DNA from: an uncultured Gemmatimonadales bacterium
GTDB lineage: Bacteria > Gemmatimonadota > Gemmatimonadetes > Gemmatimonadales > JACORV01
Reading direction: 5' to 3'
NCBI GenBank assembly: GCA_963806755.1
Contig: CAWDZR010000031.1
Location: 1,385-65,384 of the forward strand
DNA length: 64,000 nucleotides
This document shows positions 1,018 to 59,485 of this stretch, in pieces. The notes under the pieces were generated by a model. That model saw only the letters and a program-made list of their open reading frames with translations, made no database searches and was not told the origin of the DNA. The translations under genes were made by a program, and so were the position numbers. The stretch's first letter is position 1. Every line of letters begins with the position of its first letter.

Positions 1018-1199
1018 GGGACGGCCCCCCTGGTGGCAATGACGCTATCCGATCAACTCACGCGCAATCTGCGTGCCCGCCGCTGGAGTGAAAACACCGA
1101 GACTGAGTCGGAGTTCGGCCAGCGACGGCGCCACCTGGCGGCGGAGCGCGGCCGGTGCCCGGTGGCCACCCACGGGCCGGGGCTAGCCGGGACGCCTCG

Positions 1200-1262
1200 C
1201 ACCCCTCACTTTCACCCCTCGCTTCTCACATGAGCCTCTCACACCTCACCCCTCACATCTCG
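1200..1262. repeat. One-armed CTCAC-type degenerate heptamer repeat in a divergent promoter/5' leader region
   Basis: cctcact ttcaccc ctcgctt ctcacat gagcctc tcacacc tcacccc tcacatc. The last units are in period 7 (TCACNNC). I found no complementary GTGAG arm nearby. It lies 12 nt upstream of the symporter ATG (1274). Confidence 0.6.
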
Positions 1263-1273
1263 CCCGGGCCCCC

Positions 1274-3075: not shown

Positions 3076-4470
3076 TCAGCGCGGCCCGGGGTCGTTCCAG
3101 GTGGCGGGGGGCGTGGTCCCGGTGGCGAACGCCGCGAGACGCCGGATCCGCGGCGGCGCCGCGCTCTGCGTCACGACGATACGGACCGCACTCACGCGGG
3201 TCGGCGGCACGGGCTGGATGCGCCGGTGGCCCACCGAGATCCCGTCGCCCAGGTGCGTCCACACGCGGCCACTCCGACCTTCGAGGCGGTAGGCGCGCAC
3301 CCGCTCGCCGGCCGCGAGGTCCTCCTCCACGACGACGTGGTCCACGATCGTCGGCGCGCGGAGCCGCAGCTCCACCTCGCGGCCCTGGCCGGCCGTTTCG
3401 GCCACGCTCCGTCCGAAGCGACGCCGCACTTCGTCGCCGAGCTCCTTCGCCCGTGCCGCGTCGGCCGCGGGCATGTGGCCGCTCGGGTCCGGCGGGACGT
3501 TGAGCAGCAGCTGCGCGCCCCGGCCCACCGACCGGTAGTAGATCTCGAGCAGCGCGTCCAGCGTGAGCAGGCTCGCTTCGTCGGCCGGCTGCCAGAACCA
3601 ATGCGGGCGCCGGATCGAGACGTCGCACTCCAGCGGCAGCCAGGCGTCGCCGTCGGGCCTGCTCTCCCTGGCCGTGGCGACGCCCGTGGCGGCGTCCTTC
3701 GCGGCGAGCGTGTCCCACGACGGGTAGGGCGCGAACCCGTCCTCGTTCCCCACCCAGCGGATCGTGGCCTGTGGGCCCTGGAAGATCATCGTGTGCGGCG
3801 CATAGGCGGCGAGGATGTCGCCTACGGGCACCACGAGGCTGCCGTCGAACCACACTTCGGTCATGTCGCCGTAGCGGGTCAGCAGCTCGGTGAGCTGGCC
3901 GCGGTAGTAGATGTTGTACAGGGCCTGCTTCTGCGGAGTGTCGCACGCGCCCCCCACTCCGGCGCCGAAGTTGTCGTCGCGCGGGGAGAGGTACACACCC
4001 AGGCCGAGGCCGGCGCGGCGACACGAGGCGGCCAGGTCGGCCATCACGTCGCCGTGCCCGCCCTTCCACGGCGTACTGATGATGCCGTAGTCGGTGGTCT
4101 GCGTCTGCCACAGGCAGAAGCCTTCCTGGTGCTTCGCGACCAGCACCACGTAGCGGGCGCCGAGGTCCCGGGCCACGCGCGCCCACTCGTCGGTGTCGAT
4201 GTCCAGGTGGAGCGACGACAGCGGCACGGGCCGGTCCGGATGCGACCAGTCCCGCCACGTGGCGGGGCCGAAGTGGACGAACATGCCCACGCCCAGGTCC
4301 GCCCAGCGCAGCTGGTCGGGCGTGGGGAGCGCGGGATGAAGTTGGTCGAGAGTCGAGAGTCGAGGGTCGAGAGACACCGGGCCGCCCCACCCAACGGCGC
4401 GGAGCGCCGGGACGCGCGCGAGCGCTCCCGCGGCGACGAGCGACGAAACGAACCCGCGGCGATCGATCAT
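3076..4470 (-). CDS. alpha-L-fucosidase (GH29), Tat-signal
   Basis: 464 aa with Tat-like N-terminus MIDRRGFVSSLVAAGALA. GH29-like core: FGMFVHFGPATW...ARYVVLVAKHQEGFCLWQT...GGHGDVMADLAASCRRAGLGLGVYLSP. Confidence 0.85.
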   Translation of the reverse strand: MIDRRGFVSSLVAAGALARVPALRAVGWGGPVSLDPRLSTLDQLHPALPTPDQLRWADLGVGMFVHFGPATWRDWSHPDRPVPLSSLHLDIDTDEWARVARDLGARYVVLVAKHQEGFCLWQTQTTDYGIISTPWKGGHGDVMADLAASCRRAGLGLGVYLSPRDDNFGAGVGGACDTPQKQALYNIYYRGQLTELLTRYGDMTEVWFDGSLVVPVGDILAAYAPHTMIFQGPQATIRWVGNEDGFAPYPSWDTLAAKDAATGVATARESRPDGDAWLPLECDVSIRRPHWFWQPADEASLLTLDALLEIYYRSVGRGAQLLLNVPPDPSGHMPAADAARAKELGDEVRRRFGRSVAETAGQGREVELRLRAPTIVDHVVVEEDLAAGERVRAYRLEGRSGRVWTHLGDGISVGHRRIQPVPPTRVSAVRIVVTQSAAPPRIRRLAAFATGTTPPATWNDPGPR

Positions 4471-6742: not shown

Positions 6743-9700
6743 GTGAGACGTGACCCACGCACGCCGGTCCGGCGAGCCATACGCCTGGCGGTGAGGCTCG
6801 TTCTGGTCGCCGCAGCGGCGCTCGCCCTCGTCGCGGCCGCTTCGCTGGCGCCGGATGCCACCCTCGCGGCGCAGACCAGGTTGCTCCGCTTCCCCGACAT
6901 CCACGGCGACAAGGTGGTATTCACGTACGCGGGCGACCTGTGGACGGCACCCGCGACGGGCGGCACCGCCGTGCGGCTCACCGCGCACCCGGGCCTGGAG
7001 CTGTTCGCCAAGTTCTCGCCCGACGGCCGGTGGATCGCGTTCACCGGCCAGTACGACGGCGACGAGCAGGTGTACGTCATCCCGGCGGCCGGGGGCGTGC
7101 CGCGCCAGCTGACGTTCTATCCCACGCGCGGGCCGCTGCCACCGCGCTGGGGGTACGACGACCAGGTGTACGGGTGGACACCCGACGGCACGGCGGTGGT
7201 GTTCCGCTCGCTCCGCGACGGCTGGGACCTGGGCGAGGGGCGCCTGTTCACGGTGCCGCTCACCGGCGGCCTTCCGGTCGCCCTGCCGATGCCGCAGTCC
7301 GGCGCGGGCGACCTCTCGCCGGACGCGCGGCAGATCGCCTACTCGCCCCTGTTCCGTGACTTCCGCGCCTGGAAGCGCTACCAGGGCGGCTGGGCCGAGG
7401 ACATCTGGACCTTCGACCTCGCGACCCACGCGGCCCGCAACCTCACCGACAACCCGTTCACCGATCGCGACCCCATGTGGGTCGGCGACCGGATCTACTT
7501 CGCGTCCGATCGCAGCGGAACGCTGAACCTCTACTCGGTTCGTCCCGACGGCAGCGACCTGGCGCAGCTCACCCACAGCACGACCTGGGACGTGCGCTGG
7601 CCCAGCACCGATCACGCGGGCCGCATCGTCTACGAGCTGGACGGCGAGCTGCACGTGTACGCCATCCAGGGCGGCGGCGACACGAAGCTCGACATCACGG
7701 TGCCCGACGACGGCCTGGCCGCGCGGCCGCACCACCAGTCCGTCGCCGCCTTCATCGAGGACTTCGCGCTGAGCCCCGACGGCGCACGCGCGCTGTTCGT
7801 CGCCCGCGGCGACGTGTTCACCGCGCCCGCCGAGCACGGTCCGACCCGCAACCTCACGCACAGCTCCAACGCCCACGACAAGGCGGCGCGCTGGTCGCCC
7901 GACGGGCGCAAGATCGCGTTCATCTCCGACATGAGCGGCGAGGAGGAGCTGTACCTCGTGGACCAGGACGGGAGCGGCGCGCCCGAGCGGCTCACCACCG
8001 ACGGCGCCATGATGCGCTACCCGCCGGTCTGGTCGCCGGACGACCGGCGCCTGGCCTTCGGCGACAAGGCGGGCCGGCTGTGGGTGCTCGAGATCGCCGA
8101 CCGCCGCCTGACCCAGGTGGCGCGCGACTCGGGCGGCTACGTGGGCGACCAGCACTGGTCGCCCGACGGGCGCTGGCTCGCCTTCAGCATGAGCCACGCC
8201 ACGGGGTTCAGCTCGATCTGGATCTGGGGCGTCGGCGACACCGCGCCGCGCCAGGTCACCGGCGCGCTGAACGGCGCCTACGACCCGGTGTTCGACCCGG
8301 AGGGCAAGTACCTCTTCTTCCTGAGCGACCGGGAGTACCACCCGCAGATCAGCACCATGGAATGGAACTTCGCGACCGACCGCAGCACGGGCATCTTCGC
8401 CCTCGCCCTGCGCCGGGACGTGCCGTCGCCGTTCCCGCCGCAGAGCGACGAGGTGAAGCCGGATACGACGGCCGCCGCGCCCGCGACGCCCGTCGCGGCC
8501 GCACCGTCACGCGGCAGGCACGCCGCGCCGGCCCCGCCGCCCGCGGACACCGGTCACGGCGCCAAGGCCGCGCCGGCACCCGTCCTGATCGACTTCGACG
8601 GCCTCGCCGACCGCGTCACGCCCGTCCCGGTGCCCGCCGACAACTACGGCGGCCTCGAGGCGGTGAAGGGCAACCTGGTGTACGCGCGCCGGCCGGCGAG
8701 CTACTACGGCCGCGAGGCGGCGACCGGCACCTCGCTCGTCGTCTTCAACCTCGCCGAGCGCAAGGCCACGACGCTGGCCGACAGCATCGACGGCTACGCC
8801 CTCTCGCCCGACGGATCGAAGGTGCTGGTGCACCAGGGCGGCGCGTACGTCCTGTACGACGCCACTCCCAAGGGCGCGTCGTCGAAGAAGACGGTCTCCA
8901 CCGCCGGGCTCCAGGCGGACGTGGTGCCGCAGCAGGAGTGGGCGCAGATCTTCGACGAGGTGTGGCGGCGGTTCCGCGACTTCTTCTACGTGCCGAACAT
9001 GAACGGCTACGACTGGCAGGCGCTGCACGACCGCTACCGCCCCCTGCTCCAGTACGTCGGGCACCGCTCCGACCTCGACTACGTGCTCCAGGAGATGATC
9101 GGCGAGCTGAGCAACTCGCACACCTACATCTCGGGCGGCGACTACGGCGCCGTGCCGGACCGGCCGCCCGTGGGGCTGCCCGGCGCGCGGTTCGCGCTCG
9201 ACTCCGCATCCGGCCGTTACCGGATCGCGAGCATCCTGCGGGGCGACAATGCCGAGGACCCGTACCGCTCGCCGCTGACCGACGTGGGCGTGGACGCCCG
9301 CGTGGGCGACTACGTCCTGGCCATCGACGGCGAGGACCTGAAGGCGAGCGACAACCCGTACCGGCTGCTGCGCTTCAAGGCCGACCGGCCGGTCACGCTC
9401 ACGCTCAACACGCGTCCCGTCGCCGAGGGCGCGCGGCACGTGACCTACCGCCCGATCACCGGCGAGACCAACCTGGTCTATTACGGGTGGGTCGCGCGCA
9501 ACCGCCGGATGGTGGATTCGATGACCGGCGGCCGGGTCGGGTACCTGCACCTGCCCGACATGGGCGCCGACGGCATCAACGAGTTCATCAAGTGGTACTA
9601 CCCGCAGGTCCGCAAGGAAGGGCTCGTCATCGACGTGCGGTCCAACGGCGGCGGCAACATCTCCGCCATGGTGATCGAGCGCCTGAGCCGGCGCCTGCTG

Positions 9701-10153
9701 GGGACCGACTTCTCGCGCAACAGCGACTACACGTCCACCTATCCCGACGGGCCGACCTTCTACGGCTCGCTGGTGGCGCTCCTCAACGAGACGTCGGCCT
9801 CGGACGGCGACATCTTCCCCTACATGTTCCGGCAGGCGGGCCTCGGCCCGCTGATCGGCAAGCGGTCGTGGGGCGGCGTGGTCGGCATCACCGACCACGG
9901 CCAGCTGATCGACGGCGGCCACGTCAACGTGCCGGAGTTCGGGCTGGCCGACACGACCGGCCGGTGGGTGGTCGAGGGCCACGGCGTGGACCCGGACATC
10001 GTCGTGGAGAACGATCCGGCGTCGCTGATCGCCGGCCGCGACCCGCAGCTCGAGCGCGGCGTGGCGGAGGTGCTGCGGCGGATGCAGGAGCACCCGCGCA
10101 CGCTGCCGGCGCGGCCCGCGCCGCCGGTGAAGGCGCCGGCCGGGATGCGGTAG
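6743..10153 (+). CDS. tricorn-type protease homolog (beta-propellers + PDZ + S41 peptidase domain)
   Basis: ORF track gives 6713..10153. [28 protein letters not shown]...[16 protein letters not shown] is the classic tricorn N-terminus, and the C-terminus has S41-like [13 protein letters not shown]. I prefer the in-frame GTG at 6743 because AAGGAG (6732-6737) sits 5 nt upstream. 6713 remains possible. Confidence 0.85.
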   Translation: [1136 protein letters not shown]

Positions 10154-10161
10154 CCGTGGAT

Positions 10162-10320
10162 GCGTGAGGAGTGAGACGTGAGAGGTGAGAAGGGTAAGTG
10201 AGAGGTGAGAGGTGGAAAGGCGTGAGAGGGTGGCACCCACCTCTCACGCCTTTCGACGTCTCACGTCTCACCCGTCCTTCTCACCTCTCACACCTCACCT
10301 GTCGTTCCCACCCCTCACGC
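10162..10320. repeat. Long inverted repeat built of GTGAG(A/G)N heptamer-like units (left arm) and CTCAC units (right arm); probable bidirectional terminator structure
   Basis: Fills the gap between the convergent stops at 10153 (+) and 10335 (-). A perfect 14-bp central stem pairs GAAAGGCGTGAGAG (10215-10228) with CTCTCACGCCTTTC (10241-10254). The outermost GCGTGAGG (10162-10169) is complementary to CCTCACGC (10313-10320). Confidence 0.85.
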
Positions 10321-10334
10321 CGGGCCCCGTGCAT

Positions 10335-11897
10335 TCACGGCGCGGCGTGGCTCGTCGAGCCGATGAACTGCGCGATGTTGGCCTTGAGCTGCGCCAACGC
10401 CGGCGGGTAGAGGTACATCATGTGGCCGGCGTCGTAGTACTTGAGGTCGATGTGGCCCCGGAGGTCCGGCCGCAGGCCCAGGTGGTCCATCGTGTACTCG
10501 GTCGCGAAGAACGGGGTGGCGAGATCGTCGTAGCCGTTCTCCGCCTGGATCCGCAGGTTCGGGTTGTAGCGCAGCGCCTGCGCGAGATCGCCGCCCACGT
10601 ACGGCGTCCCCCGCCAGCCGCCGTTGCGGCCGCCGCGGCTCCAGTCCCAGTGCACATCGCCGCCGGTGACGTAGCGCTGGTCGCCCCCGTACTTCAGGTC
10701 GTCGTGCGCGTACGCGTTCCAGGCCGCGGTGAAGGCGCCCGTGATGGCGTCCGACTGCGGGTCGCTGTACGCGTCCTCGGCCAGCAGGTCCGCCTCCGGG
10801 CCGCTGAACCGCGCGTCGAGGCGGCCGGTGATCAAGCCCCGCCGCCGCTGCAGCTCGGCCATGTACTGGCCGAGGTCGACCCGCAGGTCCGCCTTGCTCA
10901 GGTACGCGGTATCGAGGCCGGTGTACGCCGAGAGCCGGGTCAGCACGGCGGAGCGCTCGGCGGCGCCGAGCTGCGCGCCCTTTTCGAGCGCGAGGGTGTA
11001 CGGGCCGGCCGCGAACTGGCGCACCGTGTCGAGGAACGCCGGCAGGTTCGCGGGCTGCGGGATGACGTGGTGGTACGCCGCCACCGCCGCGTAGCTCGGC
11101 AGGTAGAGCACGTAGGAGATGTCGTGCCCCGGCGCGAAGTTCAGCGTCTCGAAGTCGAGCACCGTCGAGATCAGCACCACGCCGTTGAAGTCCATGCCCT
11201 CGTCGCCCTGCAGCCGGTTGACGAGCACCGCCGAGCGCGTGGTGCCGTAGCTCTCGCCGATCAGGTACTTGGGCGAGTTCCAGCGGCCGTTGCGGGTGAC
11301 GTACTGGCGGACGAATTGCGCCAGCGACTTCGCGTCCTCGTCGATGCCCCAGAAGTCCTTGCCCGTTCCCTTCCCCACCGGCTTGCTGAAGCCGGTGCCG
11401 ATGGGATCGATGAACACCATGTCGGTGACGTCGATCAGGCTGTTGGCGTTGTCCTCGACCTGGTAGGGCGGCGGGGGCGTGTGCTCGGCGTCGGTCGTGA
11501 CGACGCGCTTGGGGCCGAACGCGCCCATGTGCAGCCACAGCGACGCGGAGCCCGGGCCGCCGTTGTAGACGAACGACAGCGGGCGGGTGCTCGCGTCGTG
11601 CGTGTCGGTCCGGGTGTAGGCCGTGTAGTACAGCCGCCCGATCGGCGCGCCGGAGTCGCTCCGCAGAATCAGCGTGCCCGCGAGCGCGCGGTACGGGATC
11701 GTCTGCCCGTTGATGCGGATGGTGTGGAGCGTGACCGACGAATCCGGGACCGTGTCCGATGGCGACTCCGACTTCACGCTCGAGTCACCCGCCGCCTGCT
11801 CAGCCGCTTGCGGGGGACGCCGGGGCCGCTGGGCACGAGCCGACGGCGCCAGTGTGACCGCCGCGCACAGGATGGTAGCCAACGGAATCAGCCGCAT
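10335..11897 (-). CDS. serine carboxypeptidase (peptidase S10 family), secreted
   Basis: ORF track 10335..12095. I place the start at ATG 11897 (MRLIPLATILCAAVTLAPSARAQ signal peptide) because GAGGAGGAAGC lies just upstream. Motifs FVYNGGPGSASLW and IGESYGTTRSAVL (catalytic Ser) fit S10. Confidence 0.8.
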   Translation of the reverse strand: MRLIPLATILCAAVTLAPSARAQRPRRPPQAAEQAAGDSSVKSESPSDTVPDSSVTLHTIRINGQTIPYRALAGTLILRSDSGAPIGRLYYTAYTRTDTHDASTRPLSFVYNGGPGSASLWLHMGAFGPKRVVTTDAEHTPPPPYQVEDNANSLIDVTDMVFIDPIGTGFSKPVGKGTGKDFWGIDEDAKSLAQFVRQYVTRNGRWNSPKYLIGESYGTTRSAVLVNRLQGDEGMDFNGVVLISTVLDFETLNFAPGHDISYVLYLPSYAAVAAYHHVIPQPANLPAFLDTVRQFAAGPYTLALEKGAQLGAAERSAVLTRLSAYTGLDTAYLSKADLRVDLGQYMAELQRRRGLITGRLDARFSGPEADLLAEDAYSDPQSDAITGAFTAAWNAYAHDDLKYGGDQRYVTGGDVHWDWSRGGRNGGWRGTPYVGGDLAQALRYNPNLRIQAENGYDDLATPFFATEYTMDHLGLRPDLRGHIDLKYYDAGHMMYLYPPALAQLKANIAQFIGSTSHAAP

Positions 11898-19688: not shown

Positions 19689-21059
19689 CTAGGAACACCC
19701 CAGCTTCGCCCGGATTTCCGCTTCGGTCAGCTTGACGCGCGGCCGACCGTTGGCCTTGCCGCGCGCGGTCTCGAGCGCCGCGATCTCGCTCCAGTCGTCG
19801 TAGGTGATGAGGCACGGCTGCCGCTCGCGGAGCAGCGCCTCGATGGCCGCCGGGTCGTCCACCGCCGGCGCAGGCGCCGCGCCCGACTTGAGGTCCTCGA
19901 CGATGGCGTCGGCCGTCTCCGCGGCGTCGGGCTTGTTGGTGCCGATCACGCCGGACGGACCGCGCTTGATCCAGCCGGCGACGTACAAACCAGGTAGTGG
20001 GTTGTGGGTTGTAGGGGACAGGACGCGACCCCGGTCATTGGGGATGACCCCCGTCTTCTCGTCGAAGGGCACGTCGGCCAGCGGGATGCCGCGGTAGCCG
20101 ACGGAGCGGAACACCATCTCGACCGGCAGATCCTCGAACGCGCCGCTCGGCACCGCCTGGAGCTGGCCGTCGGGCCCTGCCTCGAGCCGGTTGCGCACCA
20201 GGCGCATGCCGCGCACGCGGCCGCGGTCGTCGCCGCACAGCTCGACGGGCGAGACGAGGAAGCGCAGCGTCAGCCGCTTGGGCCGGCCGGTGCACGGGCG
20301 GGCACAGAAGCCCCGCAGCACCTCGACCTTCCTGCGCAGCGTCTGGTCGTCGGCACGCTCGAGCTGCGCGCGGCTCAGGGGGTCCAGCTCCACCTCTTCG
20401 CGCAGCACGCGGACGTCGCAGTCGGCGAGCTCGCCCATCTCCCGCGCCTCGGGTGTCGTGAACGACGCCTGAGCCGGTCCGCGCCGGCCCAGGAGGTACA
20501 CCTCCCGGACGCGGCTCTCCCGCAGCGCCTCGAGCGCGTAGTCCGCGATGTCGGTGGAAGCGAGCTCGGCGGGCGTGCGCAACAGGATGCGCGCCACGTC
20601 CACCGCCACGTTGCCCACGCCCACCACCGCGACCCGCTCGACCGACAGATCGAACGCGAGGTGGCGGAAGCGCGGGTGCCCGTTGTACCAGGCGACGAAG
20701 TCGGTGGCGCTGTGGCTGCGCACGAGGTCCTCGCCGGGAATGCCCATGCGCCGGTCGGTCTGCGCGCCGGTCGTGAAGCAGGCGGCGTGGTAGTGGCGGG
20801 TGAAGTCGGCGAGCGTGACCTCGCTCCCGAACTCGACGTTGCCGAAGTAGCGGAACCCGGTGCGGGAGGCGACGGCGTCGAAGGCGCGGGTGACGGAGCG
20901 GATCTTCTCGTGATCGGGGGCGACGCCGAAGCGCACCAGGCCGTACGGCGCCGGGAGGCGCTCGTAGAGGTCCACCTCCACGGCGACGTCGGTCCGCCCG
21001 AGGAGCCGCTCCGCCAGGAAGAAGCCGGCGGGGCCGGCTCCCACGATCGCGACGCGCAC
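19689..21059 (-). CDS. fprA: NADPH-ferredoxin/adrenodoxin reductase-like flavoprotein (FprA type)
   Basis: MRVAIVGAGPAGFFLAERLL...YERLPAPYGLVRFGVAPDHEKIR...VAVVGVGNVAVDVARIL...YVAGWIKRGPSGVIGTNK are characteristic FprA/AdR motifs. Confidence 0.8.
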   Translation of the reverse strand: MRVAIVGAGPAGFFLAERLLGRTDVAVEVDLYERLPAPYGLVRFGVAPDHEKIRSVTRAFDAVASRTGFRYFGNVEFGSEVTLADFTRHYHAACFTTGAQTDRRMGIPGEDLVRSHSATDFVAWYNGHPRFRHLAFDLSVERVAVVGVGNVAVDVARILLRTPAELASTDIADYALEALRESRVREVYLLGRRGPAQASFTTPEAREMGELADCDVRVLREEVELDPLSRAQLERADDQTLRRKVEVLRGFCARPCTGRPKRLTLRFLVSPVELCGDDRGRVRGMRLVRNRLEAGPDGQLQAVPSGAFEDLPVEMVFRSVGYRGIPLADVPFDEKTGVIPNDRGRVLSPTTHNPLPGLYVAGWIKRGPSGVIGTNKPDAAETADAIVEDLKSGAAPAPAVDDPAAIEALLRERQPCLITYDDWSEIAALETARGKANGRPRVKLTEAEIRAKLGCS

Positions 21060-23169: not shown

Positions 23170-25872
23170 GTGCGCTCAGGCGTCCTGATCGGGGCCATCG
23201 GCCTCGCCCTCGGCACCTTCGCCGCGGCGCGCCCGGCGGCCGCGCAGGTCCACCCGACGCCCCCGCCCCGCGCGGAGGCCGCCCGCGCGACCGGCCACAT
23301 CACGATCGACGGGAAGCTCGACGAGCCGGACTGGCAGGCGGCGGTGCCCGCCACCGACTTCCGCCAGTCCCAGCCCAACGAGGGCCAGCCCGCGACCCAG
23401 CGCACCGAGGTGCGCTTTCTCTACGACGACGACGCGCTCTACATCGGCGCGCGGATGTACGACACCGAAGGCGCCAGGGGCATCCGCACGCGGCTGGCGC
23501 GGCGCGACAACATGCCCGCGGCGGACTACATCGAGATCATCTTCGACACCTTCCACGACCACCTCGGTCGCGTGGACTTCCAGGTCAACCCGTCGGGCGT
23601 GAAGGCCGACTCCTACGGCCCCAACGGCTCCAACCTCGACCTGTCGTGGGATGCGGTGTGGGACGTCGCCACGACCGTGGACTCGCTGGGCTGGACGGCC
23701 GAGTTCCGGATCCCGCTCGGCCAGCTGCGCTACCCGCGAGACTCCGTGCAGACGTGGGGCCTCCAGGTGTGGCGGATGGAGGCGCGGCTCAACGAGCTGT
23801 CGCAGTGGGCGTTCTGGCACCTGAACGAGACGGGCGGCCCGGCGCGGTTCGGGCACCTCGAGGGCCTGCACATCACCCGCGGGCCCGACCGCGGCGAGGT
23901 GCTCCCCTACGTGGTGGGCCGCACGACGATGGACCCGACCGTCTCGCCGGCCAATCCGTTCACCGAGCCGCACGCGTGGGACGAGCGCGTCGGCGGCGAT
24001 TTCAAGTACCTGGTGAATTCCTCGCTGACCCTGTCGGGCACGATCAATCCCGACTTCGGGCAGGTCGAGGTGGACCCGGCGGTCGTCAACCTCAGCGCCT
24101 TCGAGACCTACTTCCAGGAGAAGCGGCCGTTCTTCGTCGAGGGCAACGGCCTGTTCGACTTCGGGAGCTTCAGCTGCTTCAGCTGCAGCAACGTCAATGC
24201 GCCGGGCCTGTTCTACTCGCGCCGCATCGGCCGTTCGCCGCAGGGCGCCGGCAACGCGTTGACCGCGGCGGGCGACAGCGGCTTCGCCCAGGTGCCGGAC
24301 AACACCGCGATCCTCGGCGCCGCGAAGCTCACGGGCAGCGTGGCGAAGGGCTGGACGCTCGCGGCGCTCGACGCCACGACGGCGCGCGAGATGGCCCAGA
24401 TCCAGGACTCGACGGGCCGCCGGTACCAGATGGAGGTCGAGCCGTTCACCAACTACTTCGTCGCGCGCATGTCGCACGACCTGCCGGGCGGCAGCTACGT
24501 GCGCGGCATGGTCACCTCGGTCGTGCGGGACATTCGCGACTCGACGCTCGCCACGCAGCTCAACACGCACTCCGAGGCGGCGGGGCTCGAGACCGACCTG
24601 TGGTGGGGGAAGCGCACCTATCAGCTGATGGCCAACGCGATGATGACCCAGGCGGTGGGCAGCCCGGCCGACATCCTCGGGCTCGAGCAGTCGAGCGCGC
24701 GCTACTTCCAGCGGCCCGACCGGCGCAACGGCTCGGACGGCCTGTTCAGCAACCGCTACGACGACTCGCTCACGGCACTACGCGGCTACTCGTTCTACAC
24801 GCGGCTGGCCAAGGACGCCGGCGACTGGAACTGGGAGATGCAGACGAACGTCCTGAGCCCCGGCTTCGAGGCGAATGACGTCGCCTTCAACACCCAGTCC
24901 GACCGCATCTTCATGGGCGGGAACCTGATGCGGCAGTTCACCAAGCCCAACCGGTTCGCGCGCTTCATGATGTTCATGCTGGGCGCCCAGCAGATCTACA
25001 ACTTCAGCCACGAGCTCCAGAACCGGCAGGTCCAGGGGTACACCCAGTTCACGTTCCACAACTACTGGAACCTGGCCTTCTACGGGCAGGTCCGCGCGCA
25101 GACGCTGAACGACAACCTGGCGCGCGGCGGTCCCGCCCTGGGCCAGGCGCCGTCGTGGTACTCCTTCGTCCAGCTGACCACCGACTCGCGCAAGGCGCTG
25201 GTCATCTCGAGCACTCCGGACCTCGGCTGCTCCCAGGGCCACTGCTCGTGGGACCTGAGCGTGGACGCGGTCGTTCACGCGGCGCCGAACGTCTCGGTGG
25301 AGCTGATCCCGGCGTTCAGCTACGGCACGACCAACCACCAGTACGTCACCACCGTGGCGGATTCGACGGCGACCGCGTTCTACGGGCAGCGGTACGTGTT
25401 CGCCAACCTGCTCGAGAAGACCCTCTCGATGGTGACGCGGCTGGACTGGACCTACACGCCGAACCTGACGCTGCAGCTGTACGTGCAGCCGCTGATCGTG
25501 AGCGGGCGGTACGGCGCCTTCCACGAGTTCGCCGCGCCGCGCAGCCTGGCCACCACCGTGTACGGCGCGAACGCCGGCACGATCGGCTACGCGAACGGCA
25601 CGTACACCGTGGACCCCGACGGCGCCGGGCCCGCGGCGCCGTTCACGTTCTCCGACCCCAACTTCAACTTCCGCTCGCTCCGGGGCAGCGCGGTGCTGCG
25701 CTGGGAGTATCACCCCGGCTCCACCGTCTATTTCGTCTGGACGCAGGAGCGGAGCGGGACCGGCGCCACCGGCATCGGCGACCTCGCGCTCGGAAGCGAC
25801 CTGCGCGGGCTGGCGGACCTGCAGCCGACCAACGTCTTTCTGGTCAAGTTCAGCTACTGGGTGGGGCTCTGA
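23170..25872 (+). CDS. CBM9-like + DUF5916 outer-membrane beta-barrel-type protein (paralog 1 of 3)
   Basis: 900 aa with a signal peptide. ITIDGKLDEPDWQAAVPATDFRQSQPNEG...VRFLYDDDALYIGARMYD...WDAVWDVATTVDSLGWTAEFRIPL is the CBM9-like head. The C-terminus ends ...FLVKFSYWVGL, which is OMP-like. Confidence 0.75.
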   Translation: MRSGVLIGAIGLALGTFAAARPAAAQVHPTPPPRAEAARATGHITIDGKLDEPDWQAAVPATDFRQSQPNEGQPATQRTEVRFLYDDDALYIGARMYDTEGARGIRTRLARRDNMPAADYIEIIFDTFHDHLGRVDFQVNPSGVKADSYGPNGSNLDLSWDAVWDVATTVDSLGWTAEFRIPLGQLRYPRDSVQTWGLQVWRMEARLNELSQWAFWHLNETGGPARFGHLEGLHITRGPDRGEVLPYVVGRTTMDPTVSPANPFTEPHAWDERVGGDFKYLVNSSLTLSGTINPDFGQVEVDPAVVNLSAFETYFQEKRPFFVEGNGLFDFGSFSCFSCSNVNAPGLFYSRRIGRSPQGAGNALTAAGDSGFAQVPDNTAILGAAKLTGSVAKGWTLAALDATTAREMAQIQDSTGRRYQMEVEPFTNYFVARMSHDLPGGSYVRGMVTSVVRDIRDSTLATQLNTHSEAAGLETDLWWGKRTYQLMANAMMTQAVGSPADILGLEQSSARYFQRPDRRNGSDGLFSNRYDDSLTALRGYSFYTRLAKDAGDWNWEMQTNVLSPGFEANDVAFNTQSDRIFMGGNLMRQFTKPNRFARFMMFMLGAQQIYNFSHELQNRQVQGYTQFTFHNYWNLAFYGQVRAQTLNDNLARGGPALGQAPSWYSFVQLTTDSRKALVISSTPDLGCSQGHCSWDLSVDAVVHAAPNVSVELIPAFSYGTTNHQYVTTVADSTATAFYGQRYVFANLLEKTLSMVTRLDWTYTPNLTLQLYVQPLIVSGRYGAFHEFAAPRSLATTVYGANAGTIGYANGTYTVDPDGAGPAAPFTFSDPNFNFRSLRGSAVLRWEYHPGSTVYFVWTQERSGTGATGIGDLALGSDLRGLADLQPTNVFLVKFSYWVGL

Positions 25873-25904
25873 CGGCGTCGAGTGCCGAGAGTTCAGGGTT
25901 GCAG

Positions 25905-26062
25905 GCTAGTAGCGAGACGGCGAGTTGCGAGCGGTTGGCAGATATCGTTAGCCGGAGCGAGAAAGGCCGCGGCCGGCTCGTGGGAGCCTGAGGGCCCGTT
26001 CCGCTTCTGCCGTCTCACATCTCGCTACCGCTCGCCACTCGGCGTCTCGCAACTCTACTGGC
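25905..26062. repeat. Long imperfect inverted repeat with GCGAG-type short repeat units
   Basis: Left arm tagtagcgagacggcgagttgcgagcgg (25907-25933). Right arm taccgctcgccactcggcgtctcgcaactctact (about 26027-26059). The arms are largely reverse complements. The inner part contains a further GCCGG...CCGGC pairing. Confidence 0.6.
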
Positions 26063-26095
26063 GACCGCCTGCTCCGGCCTGTTAGTTACTCCCCC

Positions 26096-28029: not shown

Positions 28030-29768
28030 AGCTCACCGGCGGCCAGATCGTCGTTCGCGCGCTCGAGGACGAGGGCATCCCCTTCGCCTTCGGCATCCCG
28101 GGCACGCACAACATCGAGCTGTACGACGCGCTCGCGGCCTCCACGAAGGTCCGGCCGGTGCTCGTGACCGACGAGCAGAGCGCGAGCTTCATGGCCGACG
28201 CGGTGTGGCGGTCGTCGGGCCGGCTCGCGTGCGCCAACGTGGTGCCGGGCGCGGGGCTCACGCACGCCATGAGCGGCATCGCGGAGGCGTACCTCGACAC
28301 CGTGGCGCTGCTGGTGCTGGGATGCGGCATCCGTCGCGACACCGGCAAGGCCTACCAGCTGCACGACGTGGACCAGATCGCGATGGTCAGGCCCGTCACC
28401 AAGGCGCAGTTCCGGCCGCAGGCCGGGGAGGAGCTGTACGCCACCATCCGGGAGGCGTGCCGACTCGCGCGCGAGGCGCCGGCGGGCCCGGTGTTCGTGG
28501 AGGTACCCGCGAACCTGTACCTGTTCACCCACGACGCGAACGTGGATGCGGCGGCACACCCTACACCCCACACCCTACACCCAGCACAACAGCAAGCAGA
28601 GCTGCAGAGAGCGCAGGTGTTGCACGCCGCCGAGTTGCTGAACGCCGTCCCACACCCCCTGCTTTACCTCGGCCTCGGCGCCGCCCCCGCCCTGCCGCAT
28701 CTCGTGGAGCTCGCCGAGCGCCTCGAGGCGCCGGTGGCCACGACGTTCCAGGGCAAGGGCGTCTTCCCCGAGTCCCACCCGCTCGCGCTGTGGCCCGGCT
28801 TCGGCGCCGCGGCGCCGCCGTTCGCACGGGCGGTCGCCGACGGCTGCGACGCCACGCTGGCCATCGGCTGCCGCTTCGGCGAGGTGGCCACGGGGAGCTA
28901 CGGTCTCGCCGTACCCCGGCCGCTCATTCACGTGGACGTGGATGCGTCCGTTCCCGGGCGCAACTACCCCACGGACGTCGCGATCGCCGGCGACTCGGCG
29001 GCCGTCGTGCCGGCGCTGCTGGCGGCGCTGGCGCCGCATCCGCGCGACCCCGCACTCCGCGCGCGCATCGCGGAGGGGCACGCCGCCCTGGCGCGCGAGC
29101 GGGCGGCCGCACCGGACACCGGGCGCGTCTCGCCCGTCCGCCTTCTCGCCGCGCTCCAGGCAAGGCTCGGACCGCAGGCGATCTTCACCGCCGACAGCGG
29201 CAACGGGACGTTCCTCGCCGTCGAGCTGCTGCGGCTCGAGGCGCCGGGCAGGCTGCTCGCCCCGGTGGACTACTCGTGCATGGGCTACGCCGTGCCGGCG
29301 GCCGTCGGCGCGAAGCTGGCGCGGCCGGATTGCCCCGTCGTCGCGCTCGCCGGAGACGGCGCCTTCCTCATGACGGGGCTCGAGCTGCTGACGGCCGCGC
29401 AGCTCGGACTCGCCGTCGCGGTGTTCGTGCTGCGGGACGGCGAGCTGGCGCAGATCGCCCAGTTCCAGGAGACCGCCTTGGGCCGCAAGACGGCGAGCGA
29501 GGTCGCGGACTACGACCTCGGGGAAATCGGTCGGGCGTTGAGAGTCGAGAGTCTAGAGCTCAAGCGGGACGCCGACATCGGCCCCGTCCTGGAGCGCGTC
29601 GCCGCGGCCACCGCCGCCGGCCGGCCGGTGCTGGTGGACACGGCGATCGACTACTCGGAGAAGACGTTCTTCACGAGGGGGGTGGTGAAGACGACCTTCC
29701 TCCGCCTTCCCTGGCGCGACCGGCTGAGGTATGTGGGGAGGGCGTTGCTGAGACGCGTGATGCCTTAG
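28026..29768 (+). CDS. thiamine-diphosphate-dependent enzyme (acetolactate synthase-like family)
   Basis: GTG 28026 overlaps the GMC stop. VKLTGGQIVVRALEDEGIPFAFGIPGTHNIELYDAL...DEQSASFMADA fits the Pyr domain. ...LAGDGAFLMTGLELLTA carries the GDG ThDP-binding motif. The first 408 codons of ORF 26802..29768 are out-of-frame overlap with the GMC gene. Confidence 0.8.
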   Translation: MKLTGGQIVVRALEDEGIPFAFGIPGTHNIELYDALAASTKVRPVLVTDEQSASFMADAVWRSSGRLACANVVPGAGLTHAMSGIAEAYLDTVALLVLGCGIRRDTGKAYQLHDVDQIAMVRPVTKAQFRPQAGEELYATIREACRLAREAPAGPVFVEVPANLYLFTHDANVDAAAHPTPHTLHPAQQQAELQRAQVLHAAELLNAVPHPLLYLGLGAAPALPHLVELAERLEAPVATTFQGKGVFPESHPLALWPGFGAAAPPFARAVADGCDATLAIGCRFGEVATGSYGLAVPRPLIHVDVDASVPGRNYPTDVAIAGDSAAVVPALLAALAPHPRDPALRARIAEGHAALARERAAAPDTGRVSPVRLLAALQARLGPQAIFTADSGNGTFLAVELLRLEAPGRLLAPVDYSCMGYAVPAAVGAKLARPDCPVVALAGDGAFLMTGLELLTAAQLGLAVAVFVLRDGELAQIAQFQETALGRKTASEVADYDLGEIGRALRVESLELKRDADIGPVLERVAAATAAGRPVLVDTAIDYSEKTFFTRGVVKTTFLRLPWRDRLRYVGRALLRRVMP

Positions 29769-34006: not shown

Positions 34007-34019
34007 CGACTGGAGGAGC

Positions 34020-34189
34020 GTGAGAGGTGACAGGTGAAGGTGAGAGGTGAGAGGTGAGAGGTGAGAGGTGAGACGTTCAAGTGAGAGGTGAGAGGCGAAA
34101 GGCGTGAGAAAGTGCGGGATGCCCTCTCACGCATTTCCACCTCTCACATCTCACTCAACCGTCTCACCTCTCACCTCTCACCTCTCACC
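34020..34189. repeat. Long hairpin of tandem heptamers (GTGAGAG)n / (CTCTCAC)n between convergent genes
   Basis: Five GTGAGAG/GTGAGAC units lie at 34040-34074 and four G/CTCTCAC units at 34161-34188. 34047-34074 is the exact reverse complement of 34161-34188 (28 bp). The interior arms (34081-34109 and 34125-34154) pair again with a few mismatches. Confidence 0.9.
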
Positions 34190-40631: not shown

Positions 40632-40637
40632 ACGACA

Positions 40638-40723
40638 GGTTGTAGGTAATGGGTGGTAGGTGGTAGGTGGTAGGTGGTGGGTGGTGGGGCGCCCCTACGA
40701 CCCACAACCCATCACCCACCACC
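40638..40723. repeat. Hairpin of (GGTGGTA)n heptamers with complementary C-rich arm, between convergent genes
   Basis: The left arm is ggttgta ggtaatg ggtggta ggtggta ggtggta ggtggtg ggtggtg, mostly in period 7. The central perfect palindrome is GGGGCGCCCC (40686-40695). The right arm is cctacga cccacaa cccatca cccacca cc. Confidence 0.85.
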
Positions 40724-42596: not shown

Positions 42597-44515
42597 CTAC
42601 GGCAACACCGGCAGCACCAGGTGCGACGGGTGCGCCGCCGAGCGGTATATCCGCTGCGTCGTCTTCCGGAAGTCCCCGTCCTTCGCCGTGTAGATGTCCT
42701 CGAACCGCCCCGGGTTCCGGTCCACCATCGGGAACCAGGTGCTCTGCACCTGCACCATCACCCGGTGGCCCGGCAGGAACGTGTGGTACACGTCGTTCAT
42801 GACGAAGTGGACCCGGGTCACCACGCCGGGGCGGAACGGCACCGGGTGCGCCGTGCCGTTCCGGAACTTGCCTCGCATCACGTCGCCGCGGAGCAGCATC
42901 TCGTAGCCGCCCATCCGCGCGGCGCGCGCCGGCCGCCCGTAGGAAAACTCCTGGTCGCGCCCGTAGTCGTCGGGGAAGACGTCGATCACCTTGACGATAT
43001 AGTCCTGGTCCGTGCCCGTGGTCGAGACGTCGAAGTCCACCGTGATGGGCCCGGCGACGGTGAGCGCGGAGTCGAGCGCCGGCGTCTGGTACACCAGGAC
43101 GTCGGGGCGGCGCGCCGCGAAGCGCTGGTCCCCCACCATGAACGCCGGATCGTACCACTGCGTGATCTCGTCCGTGTAGGGCACCGGCTTCATCGGGTCG
43201 CTCACGTACTCGTCGAACGCCGTCGCCCCGCGGGCCCCGCCGGCCCCGCGCTCTTGCGGCGCGCCGAAGGCCAGGGCGCCGCCGGCGCGCAGGTACAGGT
43301 CGCGCGGCTTCGCCTCCGGCGGGGGCCACGCGCCCACGAAGTGCCACCGGTCGCGCCCCGTCTCGAACACCGCGGCCGCGAACGGGCGCGGCGTGGGCTG
43401 CGAGTCGAGCAGGTAGTAGTTGAAGAACGGGATCTCGATGCTGTCGGCGTAGAACTCGGTCGTCGGCGAGCCCCACGCGATCATCCCCAGCGAGTCGCCG
43501 GGCAGGCCGTTCCACTGCCCGTGATGCCAGGGGCCCATCACCAGGCGCATCTCGCCGCCCGGGCTGTGCGCTCCGGGCGGCGGCCTAGCCGTGCAGCGCG
43601 CCCCACAGGTTCTCGGTGTCGAACCAGCCGCCCACGTACAGCATCGCGGGCTTGAGGTCCTTGAGGTGCGGGATCGCGCTGCGGGCCGCCCAGAACGCGT
43701 CCCACTGCGGGTGCGCGACGATCGAGTCCCAGAAGGCCACGCTGTCGTGATAGACGCGCGCGTTCAGGTTCGAGAGCGCCCCGAGCCGCATCGCGTACGC
43801 GTACCCGTCCGGCGTGCCGAAGTCGGGGAACGGCGGCATCACGCTCGTCGGCTGCGGGCGCGGCCGGCCGAAGAAGTTGAAGAAGAACGAGTGCGCCTCG
43901 AGCAGCGCGCCGTTGTGGAAGAAGTCGTCGCCGCCCATCCACTCGGTCACCGGCGCCTGCGGCGAGACGACCTTCACCGCCGGGTGCGCGTCGATGGCGC
44001 CGCCATCTCGGCGTAGAAGCCCGGGTACGACGTGCCGCGCACGCCCACCCGCCCGTTGTTGAACGGGATGTTCTTGATCAGCCAGTCGATCGTGTCGTAG
44101 GTGTCGGTGGTCTCGTCCACGTCCTTGTTCGGTCCGGTGCGCCGACGACCGGCCGCACGTCCTCGAACTCGCCCTCGCTCATCCAGCGCCCGCGCACGTC
44201 CTCGCCGACGATGATGAAGTGCTCGCGGGCGTACGCCGCGGTGATGTGGTCGAGGCCGCGCGGAAACGCGTCCGGCCCGTACGGCAGGTTGCCGTACGGC
44301 GTGCGGATCATGACGATCGGGTGCCGCGCGGTCGTGTCCTTCGGCACGAAGACGCGGGCGTACAGGCGCACGCCGTCCCGCATCGGGATCATCACTTCGC
44401 GCTTCGTGTAGTTGGCGCGGAACCAGCCGGTGTCAGCCTGGGGCGACTGCGCGGTCACGGCCGCGGGCGCGAGGGCGAGGGCGAGCAGGGACAACAGGAC
44501 GGCGAGGCGACGCAT
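42597..44515 (-). pseudogene. CocE/NonD-family hydrolase (X-Pro dipeptidyl-peptidase S15-like) broken by at least three frame disruptions
   Basis: The pieces lie in different frames. The N-terminal piece is 44515..44078 (signal peptide, ...IVGEDVRGRWMSEGEFEDVRP). An unlisted frame reads TGPNKDVDETTDTYDTIDWLIKNIPFNNGRVGVRGTSYPGFYAEMAA. The middle piece is 43977..43585 (IDAHPAVKVVSPQAPVTEWMGGDDFFHNGA...GGWFDTENLWGALHG*). The C-terminal piece is 43550..42597 (RLVMGPWHHGQW...). The breaks are near 44135-44160, 43995-44000 and 43551-43587. Confidence 0.8.
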
Positions 44516-44537: not shown

Positions 44538-44609
44538 CCTACACCCTACACCCTACACCCTAAACCCGGGGGGGGAAGGGTGTGGGGTGTAGGGTGTGGG
44601 GTGTGGGGG
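44538..44609. repeat. Hairpin of (CCTACAC)n heptamers with complementary G-rich (GTGTRGG)n arm
   Basis: cctacac cctacac cctacac cctaaac cc gggggggg aa ggg tgt gggg tgta ggg tgt gggg tgt ggggg. It lies between the co-directional genes at 44617 (stop) and 44515 (start). Confidence 0.85.
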
Positions 44610-44616
44610 TCCCGCC

Positions 44617-47184
<2,568 letters not shown>

Positions 47185-49860: not shown

Positions 49861-49873
49861 GCGGTGTCCTGTC

Positions 49874-49908
49874 TGCTGAATTTTCAGCATAGTGCTGAAT
49901 CTTCAGCA
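49874..49908. promoter_or_regulatory. Two tandem 16-bp perfect palindromes TGCTGAA-NN-TTCAGCA (candidate operator pair)
   Basis: TGCTGAATTTTCAGCA (49874-49889) and TGCTGAATCTTCAGCA (49893-49908) have centres 19 bp apart. They sit in the only clearly AT-rich patch of this intergenic region, 14-48 nt upstream of ATG 49860. Confidence 0.5.
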
Positions 49909-53000: not shown

Positions 53001-53108
53001 AGGGGTTAGGGACTAGGGGTTAGGGACCAGGGGTGGAAACGAAGGGGCCCCGTCGCGACGCGCGGCGGGGCTCCAGTGCTTTTCCCTAGTCCCTAACCCC
53101 TAACCCCT
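53001..53108. repeat. Hairpin of 7/14-nt units GGGGTTA/GGGACTA (contains TTAGGG-like tracts) between convergent genes
   Basis: The left arm is a gggg tta ggg acta gggg tta ggg acca gggg. The right arm is ccc tagt ccc taa cccc taa cccc t. 53001-53011 is the exact reverse complement of 53098-53108. An inner GC hairpin lies around 53045-53072. Confidence 0.85.
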
Positions 53109-57649: not shown

Positions 57650-57685
57650 CCACCACCCACGACCCACCACCCGCAACCTACCAAC
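57650..57685. repeat. One-armed C-rich heptamer repeat (CCACSAC)n
   Basis: ccaccac ccacgac ccaccac ccgcaac ctaccaa, in period 7. It lies between the Smr stop (57720) and the copy-A start (57613). No complementary arm is nearby. The unit type matches the right arm of the 40638-40723 element. Confidence 0.6.
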
Positions 57686-59329: not shown

Positions 59330-59485
59330 CTTAGCGCACCGGGCGCCCTTCCGTTACGGTCGGCCGCCGGCCGGGACTCGCCCCGTCGCGCTTGACGGAA
59401 GCGCGTCCGGTTGCGATTCATTCCCGGTCCACCAACCAGTCACACCTTTGTCTCTGGACCTTCCCGCTCGCGGATTGGGGGCTGG

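Follow-up and report, generated by a model that had tools for sequence, protein, structure and literature searches.

The DNA stretch analysed here, 64 kb from an uncultured Gemmatimonadales bacterium and referred to below as the window, carries two convergent peptidase genes that face each other across a short spacer. The first encodes a tricorn protease (Pfam domains PF14684, PF14685 and PF03572) and ends at 10153; the second, on the minus strand, belongs to the Peptidase_S10 family and ends at 10335. These are the two convergent stops between which an initial annotation, made from the letters of the window, had placed a hairpin repeat. Nearly all of the 181-nt spacer is taken up by an imperfect palindrome of ca. 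160 nt, hereafter the 10-kb element, whose parts are listed in Table 1. The whole spacer folds at -116.6 kcal/mol on the plus strand and -117.7 kcal/mol on the minus strand (z = -11.2 and -11.6, respectively), and none of 200 shuffled sequences gave a fold as stable as that of the element. The perfect stem, first described as 14 bp long with GAAAGGCGTGAGAG (10215-10228) pairing with CTCTCACGCCTTTC (10241-10254), is real and has a true length of 15 bp (10215-10229 and 10240-10254); it lies within 59-nt arms that are 85% complementary and separated by 10 nt. With its A-tract, GC stem and T-tract, this core stem-loop looks, on its letters, like a small bidirectional terminator hairpin.

The core is shared with a second locus. 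The exact 13-mer GAAAGGCGTGAGA has three matches in the window (10215 plus strand, 10242 minus strand and 34097 plus strand) and none in 100 dinucleotide-preserving shuffles. Identity of the core string with positions 34097-34109, as initially noticed, is therefore exact, while the partner arm, said to be conserved as well, is so with one mismatch (34125-34137). Double GTGAGA units have 19 matches in the window against 0.44 expected, all but one inside the 10-kb and 34-kb elements. Overall, this GTGAGAG family is represented in the window by two full copies and one half copy. A nucleotide profile derived only from the elements of relatives matches all four arms of the two full copies (nhmmer, E = 1e-21 to 4e-26, with both 34-kb arms at E ~1e-25), as well as the solitary C-rich arm at 1205-1288 (E = 3.6e-10), and finds no other match over the window. 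The homology of the two loci and their membership of one dispersed family are thus upheld. The half copy, or singlet, aligns locally with the right arm of the 10-kb element with a score of 46, when shuffles give 18.7 +/- 3 and a maximum of 33. It sits in a divergent promoter region, directly upstream of a symporter gene starting at 1274, and is both the sole copy in the window without a hairpin and the sole one in such a region. At gathering thresholds, no Rfam family matches the 10-kb element; in permissive mode, models of miRNA precursors do so as generic long hairpins (58 bits for a cut-off of 137), which was regarded as noise.

Each copy is a head-to-head, or inverted, doublet of one modular unit of ca. 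70-85 nt, as seen when the left arm is compared with the reverse complement of the right one. From the outside to the inside, the unit begins with a series of GTGAGAN heptamers, followed by an interrupter of 6 nt (of the GTTCAAG or of the GGATAG/GGGTAA type), a pair of GTGAGAG heptamers, GyGAAAGGC and GTGAGAGG. The same modular arms occur in more than 25 elements, in which a short GC tip and a loop, both varying from copy to copy, connect the two units, and either strand folds into a hairpin of ca. 150 nt. The modules result in higher-order periods of 27, 34 and 41 nt. Because conserved interrupters and GyGAAAGGC follow the same order at different loci and in different genomes, the family is not a pure simple-sequence array. 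The arms were initially proposed to vary by slippage, and the number of heptamers does differ between orthologs; duplications of whole 27-41-nt modules have to be added to this picture. Within an element, the arms match each other no better than they match the arms of other elements of the same genome (mean complementarity score 30.0 versus 30.0, p = 0.41) and, in some elements such as L055 (L numbers designate the fetched loci), they even differ in interrupter subtype, so that the hairpin results from two family units placed head to head and not from compensatory change at each locus.

The 13-mer had been taken as the conserved core of the family. It is conserved at multiple loci in a high-GC clade (see below), but its GAAAGGCG half is not family-specific. 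The latter looks like a generic hairpin foot (A-tract, GC stem, T-tract), since other heptamer families also have it and plain orthologous hairpins resemble it: (GGGTGTA)n and (GGTTGTA)n hairpins of relatives are built around GAAAGGCGCC...GGCGCCTTTG, and the plain hairpins found at orthologous sites read CGAAGGCC...GGCCTTCG. In a search of the window for plain AAGGC...GCCTT hairpins only the 10-kb element matched, and the argument for a generic foot is accordingly drawn from the loci of relatives.

A scan of a genome collection with one genome per species, in which the pattern did not require the GAAAGGC core, gave at least 115 loci. Among those listed, ca. 71 are from Gemmatimonadota metagenome-assembled genomes (MAGs), as counted from record titles; MFD01299.bin.2.175 contributes 10 or more loci, and MFD00008.bin.2.66 and SMAG_U12260 six or more each. 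The remaining listed loci are simple (GTGAGAG)n-loop-(CTCTCAC)n hairpins that occur in Bacteroidota, Verrucomicrobiota, Acidobacteriota, Bacillota and other phyla. The arm order, 73 G-first versus 0 C-first, is uninterpretable because the search pattern demanded G-first. The exact GAAAGGCGTGAGA core is present at 10 of the 195 fetched loci. When one mismatch is tolerated, it is found in 24 of 40 elements at loci with a GC content of at least 0.69, in 3 of 45 between 0.60 and 0.69 and in none of 34 below 0.60; among the 119 elements, control 13-mers made by scrambling have 0-4 matches. The composite form is thus specific to a high-GC clade of Gemmatimonadales. Two Gemmatimonadales MAGs (L107 and L017) are syntenic with the region 32.5-38.4 kb of the window, at 77-79% nucleotide identity, which would place the window in or close to their clade. 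Exact-protein look-ups for the window gave no match, and the sequencing runs matched by it were environmental metagenomes only, sharing at most 18% of words.

Three observations on the distribution are reported here in their own right. Simple GTGAGAG heptamer hairpins were also seen in Prevotellaceae, Saprospiraceae, Verrucomicrobiota and Acidobacteriota, a cross-phylum spread that may not be special to this heptamer. In two Pelotomaculum MAGs, such a hairpin lies between tRNA-Met and tRNA-Glu in a cluster of four tRNA genes (L007:5193-5245 and L077:6469-6522). Finally, a 5-kb contig labelled Thermoanaerobaculaceae and binned as Acidobacteriota (L023, DATKMD010000192.1) bears a composite element in which the Gemmatimonadales core is exact and the interrupter reads GTTCAGG; the contig is either mis-binned or the product of horizontal transfer.

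The elements are essentially all intergenic and favour the 3' ends of genes. Among 62 elements with a resolved context, 24 are located between convergent genes, 33 between tandem, co-directional genes and 5 between divergent ones, whereas the background intergenic regions of the same loci comprise 61 convergent, 167 tandem and 55 divergent cases; these contexts are approximate, as genes were called with a simple caller based on G+C content at third codon positions. The excess of convergent contexts (Fisher p = 0.009) and the deficit of divergent ones (p = 0.04) are in agreement with a 3'-end bias. The median share of the stop-to-stop distance taken up by the hairpin, over 20 convergent spacers, is 94%, with 1-2 nt left unpaired on each side. 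The family is found at many loci, essentially all of them intergenic and with a preference for gene ends, and the two outcomes that would have spoken against the initial annotation (a core present at two sites only, or random placement inside genes) did not occur. A simple GTGAGAG hairpin was also found between secY and adk, within the conserved ribosomal-protein/secY operon, in at least five Gemmatimonadota species (L025, L029, L061, L062, L080, L115).

Copies from the same genome are more alike than copies from different genomes (58.8 versus 46.5), a difference reached in 0 of 2,000 permutations, and L017, which carries the ortholog of the 34-kb copy, has in that copy an element that is closest to the paralogs of its own genome. 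As non-repetitive punctuation is shared in a fixed order, an independent local origin by slippage is largely ruled out. Judging from the sequences, some copying process would be needed, either transposition or recombination and conversion among copies.

The history of the 10-kb site can be followed in 80 metagenomic loci encoding relatives of the tricorn C-terminus. Four of these, L118, L120, L127 and L116, retain the tricorn and S10 pair, with a spacer of ca. 80 nt in the first three and the S10 gene farther away in the fourth. In all four, the tricorn stop is directly followed by a plain hairpin, CGAAGGCCGGGG-loop-CCCCGGCCTTCG or a close variant, with no heptamers, and further close relatives also have a plain GC hairpin immediately 3' of this stop. 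Two further relatives were seen on metagenome contigs. In the first, X3, whose flanks are ca. 84-91% identical, 90 nt are found where the window has 193. In the second, X2, which is ca. 92% identical, the element is present but 19 nt shorter and is best aligned in flipped orientation relative to its flanks (129 nt with 18 mismatches and no gap; window 9700-10800), which suggests that the whole palindrome may have flipped between the two lineages. The site therefore shows a presence/absence difference, being filled in the window and X2 and plain in L116, L118, L120, L127 and X3. In a peat metagenome, read depth over the element reaches 380, compared with some 15-130 in the genes on either side, and 21 contigs of X3 pass into unrelated sequence at 10164; both indicate many other copies in peat and wetland communities. 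The 34-kb copy, for its part, is kept at the orthologous site in three species (the window, L107 and L017) with flanks only ca. 77% identical, and its orthologs keep the full architecture while differing in the tip and in the number of units and modules. Together with the secY-adk case, this indicates that copies are long-lived at some sites and variable in presence at others.

On these grounds the 10-kb element is a copy of a lineage-specific family of dispersed palindromic repeats, and we consider it probable, with a confidence of about 60%, that it resembles REPINs, the hairpin-forming doublets of sequences called repetitive extragenic palindromes (REP), and acts as a 3'-end hairpin. Its position after the stop, its substitution for the plain hairpin of orthologous sites and its terminator-like core all point to such a role, and, as in intrinsic terminators, a GC-rich stem-loop directly follows the stop codon. 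The element would have reached the site by copy-and-paste or by recombination among family copies within the lineage, as a non-autonomous element comparable to REPINs or to transposable elements of the miniature inverted-repeat kind (MITEs). It would then have taken over the job of the plain hairpin, that of a structure shared by the 3' ends of transcripts arriving from both sides. By analogy with REP sequences and bacterial interspersed mosaic elements (BIMEs), the hairpin would terminate or attenuate transcription and block 3' exonucleases. Later changes in the arms would have added and removed heptamers and 27-41-nt modules, with the neighbouring coding sequences (CDS) as the upper bound.

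Several results weigh against this interpretation, first with regard to function. The stem is followed by TTTC only, with no U-rich tract, and a scan for consensus promoters and terminators found neither, with no terminator-like site in 9500-11000. A search of RNA sequencing runs for the element sequence returned no match. For the 33 elements with co-directional neighbours, the more stable fold is that of the sense strand in 17 cases and that of the antisense strand in 15 (p = 0.86). The members found inside operons (secY-adk and the Pelotomaculum tRNA cluster) imply that full termination is not general. The lack of excess complementarity between the arms of one element speaks against the per-locus compensatory evolution expected of a selected RNA structure. 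Finally, elements are 80-84% identical between orthologs, which is not clearly higher than the 65-80% of third codon positions; since this identity is inflated by the alignment of repeat on repeat, purifying selection is not claimed.

Other results weigh against mobility. No transposase, Y1/RAYT (REP-associated tyrosine transposase), integrase or reverse transcriptase was detected by Pfam among all genes of the window. When 403 open reading frames (ORFs) beside the listed loci, at least 115 in number, were clustered, no recurring family was of a mobilising type: the largest cluster covers 7 loci, and the ten largest consist of housekeeping families only according to Pfam. No copy was found on 2.9 million viral contigs, which also argues against phage carriage. 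The ends of the elements fade into degenerate heptamers, leaving the boundaries undefined and any target-site duplication unreadable. In a boundary walk that stopped inside most elements, flanking direct repeats had a mean length of 2.8, against 2.5 in random pairs, a comparison too uncertain to be weighed; the 10-kb site has no clean empty state, as the whole spacer differs from that of relatives. A direct repeat matching at 7 of 8 positions, CCGTGGAT and CCGTGCAT, was seen by eye around the 10-kb copy; it has no counterpart at 34 kb, is within chance given the freedom in its position and was discarded. The initial proposal of a REP/MITE-like family thus stands as far as a dispersed homologous family with a position bias is concerned; neither a GTAG or CGTC tag, nor a readable target duplication, nor a transposase nearby goes with it.

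The serious rival, which we regard as possible rather than probable, is a selfish or neutral palindromic element of the REPIN/MITE kind that selection confines to 3' spacers. The location would then reflect survivorship, and the element would have displaced the plain hairpin without inheriting its role. The multiplicity of copies, their greater likeness within genomes and the coexistence of filled and plain states at the 10-kb site are all as this explanation would have it, and so are the absence of per-locus compensatory change, the absence of a sense-strand bias and an ortholog conservation not clearly above neutral. The singlet in the promoter region also fits the decay of a doublet, in the way REPIN singlets have been described (PMC3116915). 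Less readily accommodated is the retention of copies at orthologous sites, both at 34 kb, where the flanks have diverged to ca. 77% identity, and in the secY-adk gap of five or more species, as is the lack of any mobilising gene in the window and beside the listed loci. The tricorn site itself also speaks against this rival. All close relatives examined have some hairpin at the tricorn stop, so the hairpin role must be met by something, and in the filled spacer no hairpin except the element reaches across the gap, the one other repeat there being weak, 11 nt long and overlapping the S10 stop.

The window also has other heptamer features (Table 1). With a stringent threshold, five arrays of period 7 were detected and none of periods 5, 6 or 8-11; with a looser one, period 7 gave six arrays, periods 5 and 6 one apiece and periods 8-12 none. 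Of the six convergent gaps in the window, four contain a heptamer hairpin. Each type of heptamer unit is present at two or more loci of the window, except the double unit at 53 kb, and the arrays with a single arm mostly sit immediately upstream of gene starts. The ACACCCT/GGGTGTG family also occurs in relatives, there with a GAAAGGCGCC centre, at L054:5176 and L083:5265. GTGAGAG is thus one of several heptamer families in this genome, and relatives that bear GTGAGAG elements also carry other heptamer units with the same hairpin design. No heptamer family was found in 126 kb of high-GC tricorn loci, closest relatives included. From their occurrence, the heptamer families appear to travel together as a lineage-specific trait. 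The long degenerate hairpin at 25.9 kb could represent this class in an old or divergent form. The double unit at 53 kb was also seen to resemble the telomere repeat GGGTTAG.

This diversity makes room for a wider reading, which we consider unlikely but of interest: a dedicated mechanism of this lineage could build and maintain several families of 7-nt arrays symmetrically around post-gene hairpins (GTGAGAG, GGGTGTA, GGTGGTA/GGTTGTA, GTCGAGA and GGGGTTA/GGGACTA), the decorated terminators filling whole stop-to-stop spacers. The cause, lacking in relatives devoid of arrays, would be an enzyme or binding protein that reads heptamers (e.g. a RAYT-like or another single-stranded DNA transposase) or else some factor measuring out 7 nt. 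If true, this would amount to a new system-level punctuation of the genome, beyond one more MITE.

It is less probable still that the heptamers form a putative array of binding sites for a lineage-specific factor reading 7 nt, whether a protein binding single- or double-stranded nucleic acid or the ribosome, with the hairpin as a secondary outcome. The strict periodicity of 7 would be explained, and the recurrence of a few discrete heptamer families in related genomes, contrasting with their absence from the 126 kb of tricorn loci, suggests a lineage-specific cause; binding of cold-shock proteins at one heptamer per protein has been discussed for TAACTGA repeats (PMC4679880). No candidate factor was found, however, and the heptamer families share no single motif. 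The presence of the same GTGAGAG arrays in Bacteroidota, which make little use of Shine-Dalgarno sites, speaks against the version involving the ribosome. That version is suggested by the units of the G-rich arm, which contain GAGGTGA, and those of the C-rich arm, which contain TCACCTC (10171-10229 and 10240-10298, and every GTGAGAG array); these resemble the Shine-Dalgarno core and the 3' end of 16S rRNA, respectively. The hairpin thus pairs an array resembling Shine-Dalgarno sites with one resembling their target, and this may be coincidence.

An independent local origin is largely refuted and would be very surprising. In this scenario, an ordinary terminator would have grown by heptamer slippage, its arms being corrected by template switching, and the likeness between the 10-kb and 34-kb elements would be convergence. 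That a heptamer is part of the core stem itself (GGC-GTGAGAG-G), that the arrays extend to the stop codons as if grown to the available limit, and that several heptamer families decorate hairpins with similar feet, only period 7 being expanded, would all be accounted for. Against it stand the non-repetitive punctuation (GTTCAAG or GGATAG, then GyGAAAGGC) that recurs in the same order at many loci and in many genomes, the recognition of the window copies by the profile from relatives (E = 1e-21 to 4e-26) and the arms of one element being no better matched than others, the opposite of what arm-to-arm correction would produce. G-quadruplex formation, as proposed for the GGGAATC heptamers of Xanthomonas, which have the same genomic habit (intergenic, in inverted pairs, beside stop codons; PMC4692102), and suggested by the G-runs of other families in the window (GGGTGTG, GGGGTTA), can practically be dismissed for the GTGAGAG family, whose unit has no run of two or more G and cannot form G-tetrads.

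Table 1. Elements of the GTGAGAG family and other heptamer features in the window, followed by two heptamer hairpins of relatives
Feature	Position	Strand	Description
Full composite palindrome, 10-kb copy	10156..10320	.	Minimum-energy hairpin 10156-10311; outermost inverted repeat 10162-10176 / 10306-10320
G-rich left arm, 10-kb copy	10162..10229	+	Read from sequence; holds a 27-nt direct repeat; profile of relatives E = 2.5e-25. Outer part: GCGTGAGG A, GTGAGAC (10171), GTGAGAG (10178), GTGAGAA (10185), interrupter GGGTAA (10192-10197). Inner part: GTGAGAG (10198), GTGAGAG (10205), GTGGAAAGGC (10212-10221), GTGAGAG G (10222-10229)
Core stem-loop, 10-kb copy	10215..10254	.	15-bp stem GAAAGGCGTGAGAGG / CCTCTCACGCCTTTC; 10-nt tip GTGGCACCCA at 10230-10239
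C-rich right arm, 10-kb copy	10240..10320	+	Profile of relatives E = 1.1e-21; period-27 array 10259-10321. Order: C CTCTCAC, GCCTTTCGAC, GTCTCAC x2, interrupter CCGTCC (10272-10277), TTCTCAC, CTCTCAC, ACCTCAC, CTGTCGTTCCCAC, CCCTCAC GC
Second full copy, 34-kb copy	34019..34189	.	Between convergent stops 34006 and 34193; -113.1 kcal/mol; GTTCAA-type interrupter; core GAAAGGCGTGAGA 34097-34109; partner TCTCACGCATTTC 34125-34137
Third copy, half (singlet)	~1190..1272	+	C-rich arm only; core remnant ACGCC..TCG
Heptamer hairpin	40637-40723		(AGGTGGT)n - GGGGCGCCCC - (ACCCACC)n; takes up the spacer where an aldo/keto reductase gene (stop 40631) and a multicopper oxidase gene (stop 40733) converge
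Heptamer hairpin	44538-44608		CCTACAC / GGGTGTG, C-rich arm first; between two co-directional genes; 101-nt spacer, -72 kcal/mol
Single ACACCCT/GGGTGTG array	28556-28582		Same unit family as the 44.5-kb hairpin
Hairpin with double unit	53001-53108		GGGGTTAGGGAC arrays, 14-nt double unit (AGGGGTT AGGGACC), flanking a classic GC hairpin with TTTT after it; located where a fucosidase gene and a PQQ-like beta-propeller gene converge at their stops
Long degenerate hairpin	25873-26095		-112 kcal/mol; arms of ~7-nt GCGAG-type units around a GAGAAAGGCC centre
Single-arm heptamer arrays	4345-4373, 29540-29558, 19993-20012, 57650-57683		GTCGAGA (two loci), GGTTGTG, CCACCAC
Heptamer hairpin of a relative	L054:5176		(GGGTGTA)n-GAAAGGCGCC...GGCGCCTTTGC-(TACACCC)n
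Heptamer hairpin of a relative	L024:6929		(GGTTGTA)n-...AAAGGCGCC...GGCGCCTTTG-(TACAACC)n

Elsewhere in the window, an X-Pro dipeptidyl-peptidase (S15) gene on the minus strand (42597-44515) appears to be split into three ORFs that correspond to the N-terminal part (44078-44515), the middle part (43585-43977) and the PepX_C domain (42597-43550). The gap at 43551-43584 contains a perfect 34-nt GC palindrome, and the split could be due to a pseudogene, a frameshift or the insertion of a small hairpin. Three paralogous proteins with CBM9 and DUF5916 domains are encoded at 23170-25872, 44617-47184 and 47269-49890. Finally, a pair of EgtD-like (Methyltransf_33) and EgtB-like (DinB_2 and FGE-sulfatase) genes at 59411-61809 suggests, from their domains, a possible capacity for ergothioneine synthesis.

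Abundant in soil, the Gemmatimonadota count few cultured members, and hardly any non-coding features of their genomes have been described. The family described here joins two kinds of repeats that are usually kept apart, namely dispersed palindromes of the REPIN/MITE type and simple-sequence arrays of heptamers, and its legible modules, together with plain and decorated states at one orthologous site, make it a tractable system. It raises the questions of how hairpins at terminator positions are replaced in evolution, of whether such elements are beneficial to the host or selfish, and of why the period is 7, a long-standing one for the short tandemly repeated repetitive (STRR) sequences of cyanobacteria and for the repeats of Xanthomonas and Beggiatoaceae. 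In practical terms, the hairpins are likely to break short-read assemblies and could act as lineage markers in soil metagenomes.

When compared with known systems, the family shares with MITEs, of which Correia/NEMIS, ERIC and RUP are bacterial examples, a size of 100-200 bp, inverted arms, an intergenic location, presence or absence at an orthologous site and a plausible effect on neighbouring transcripts. It differs from them by the lack of terminal inverted repeats distinct from the body, of a readable target-site duplication and, in the window and the fetched flanks, of any related autonomous insertion sequence. It also resembles a bidirectional intrinsic terminator in its GAAA-GGCGTGAGAGG...CCTCTCACGCC-TTTC core, located between convergent stops where relatives have a plain hairpin; yet the T-tract has 3 nt only, the stem is lengthened to ca. 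70 bp by the heptamer arms and some members lie inside operons.

Heptamer arrays are known from several bacteria. The cyanobacterial STRR heptamers (Mazel 1990 and Mrazek 2007, as cited in later work) and the TAACTGA repeats of Beggiatoaceae, Cyanobacteria and Bacteroidetes are similar in that several intergenic heptamer families occur per genome, with a patchy distribution that is lineage-specific and yet crosses phyla. Most of these repeats form direct arrays that lie immediately upstream of start codons, a single inverted case being recorded in 170 sets (PMC4679880), whereas an inverted hairpin after stop codons is the rule in the GTGAGAG family. In Xanthomonas campestris and X. axonopodis, GGGAATC arrays form 70-75 convergently oriented pairs per genome capable of stem-loop formation (Rehm et al. 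2015, PMC4692102). They lie near stop codons, are mostly transcribed and are found between convergent genes in 16% and divergent genes in 7-8% of cases, at positions that are not conserved between the two species (PMC4692102). Tandem 7-nt units, dispersed in intergenic regions as inverted pairs beside stop codons, are thus common to both families. The Xanthomonas units differ in being G-quadruplex-capable, and no conserved core or interrupters have been reported for them, while the GTGAGAG family has both its punctuation and some orthologous sites.

A search of the literature library used found no paper mentioning a GTGAGAG hairpin repeat in bacteria, and the family, a REPIN/MITE-like palindrome built of heptamer arrays and specific to a Gemmatimonadales lineage, is apparently undescribed. 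As for REP sequences and REPINs, there are many extragenic copies per genome that occur as inverted hairpin doublets, accompanied by singlets; the two units are joined by a short spacer, with hairpin formation in single-stranded DNA or mRNA (PMC3116915), and both persist vertically in a lineage while diversifying within genomes (bioRxiv 10.1101/2021.07.10.451892). A REP unit is defined as an imperfect palindrome that is short (20-40 nt) and has a conserved head, GTAG or CGTC (PMC3733652). In contrast, the unit described here has ca. 70-85 nt and consists of tandem heptamers with fixed punctuation instead of a palindrome, and neither head is present at the ends of the core and arms. Furthermore, no RAYT was found in the window and the 8-kb flanks searched, and length varies through the gain and loss of heptamers and modules. 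Overall, REPINs are the closest to the GTGAGAG family in layout and population behaviour, and the GGGAATC pairs of Xanthomonas the closest in composition and habit.

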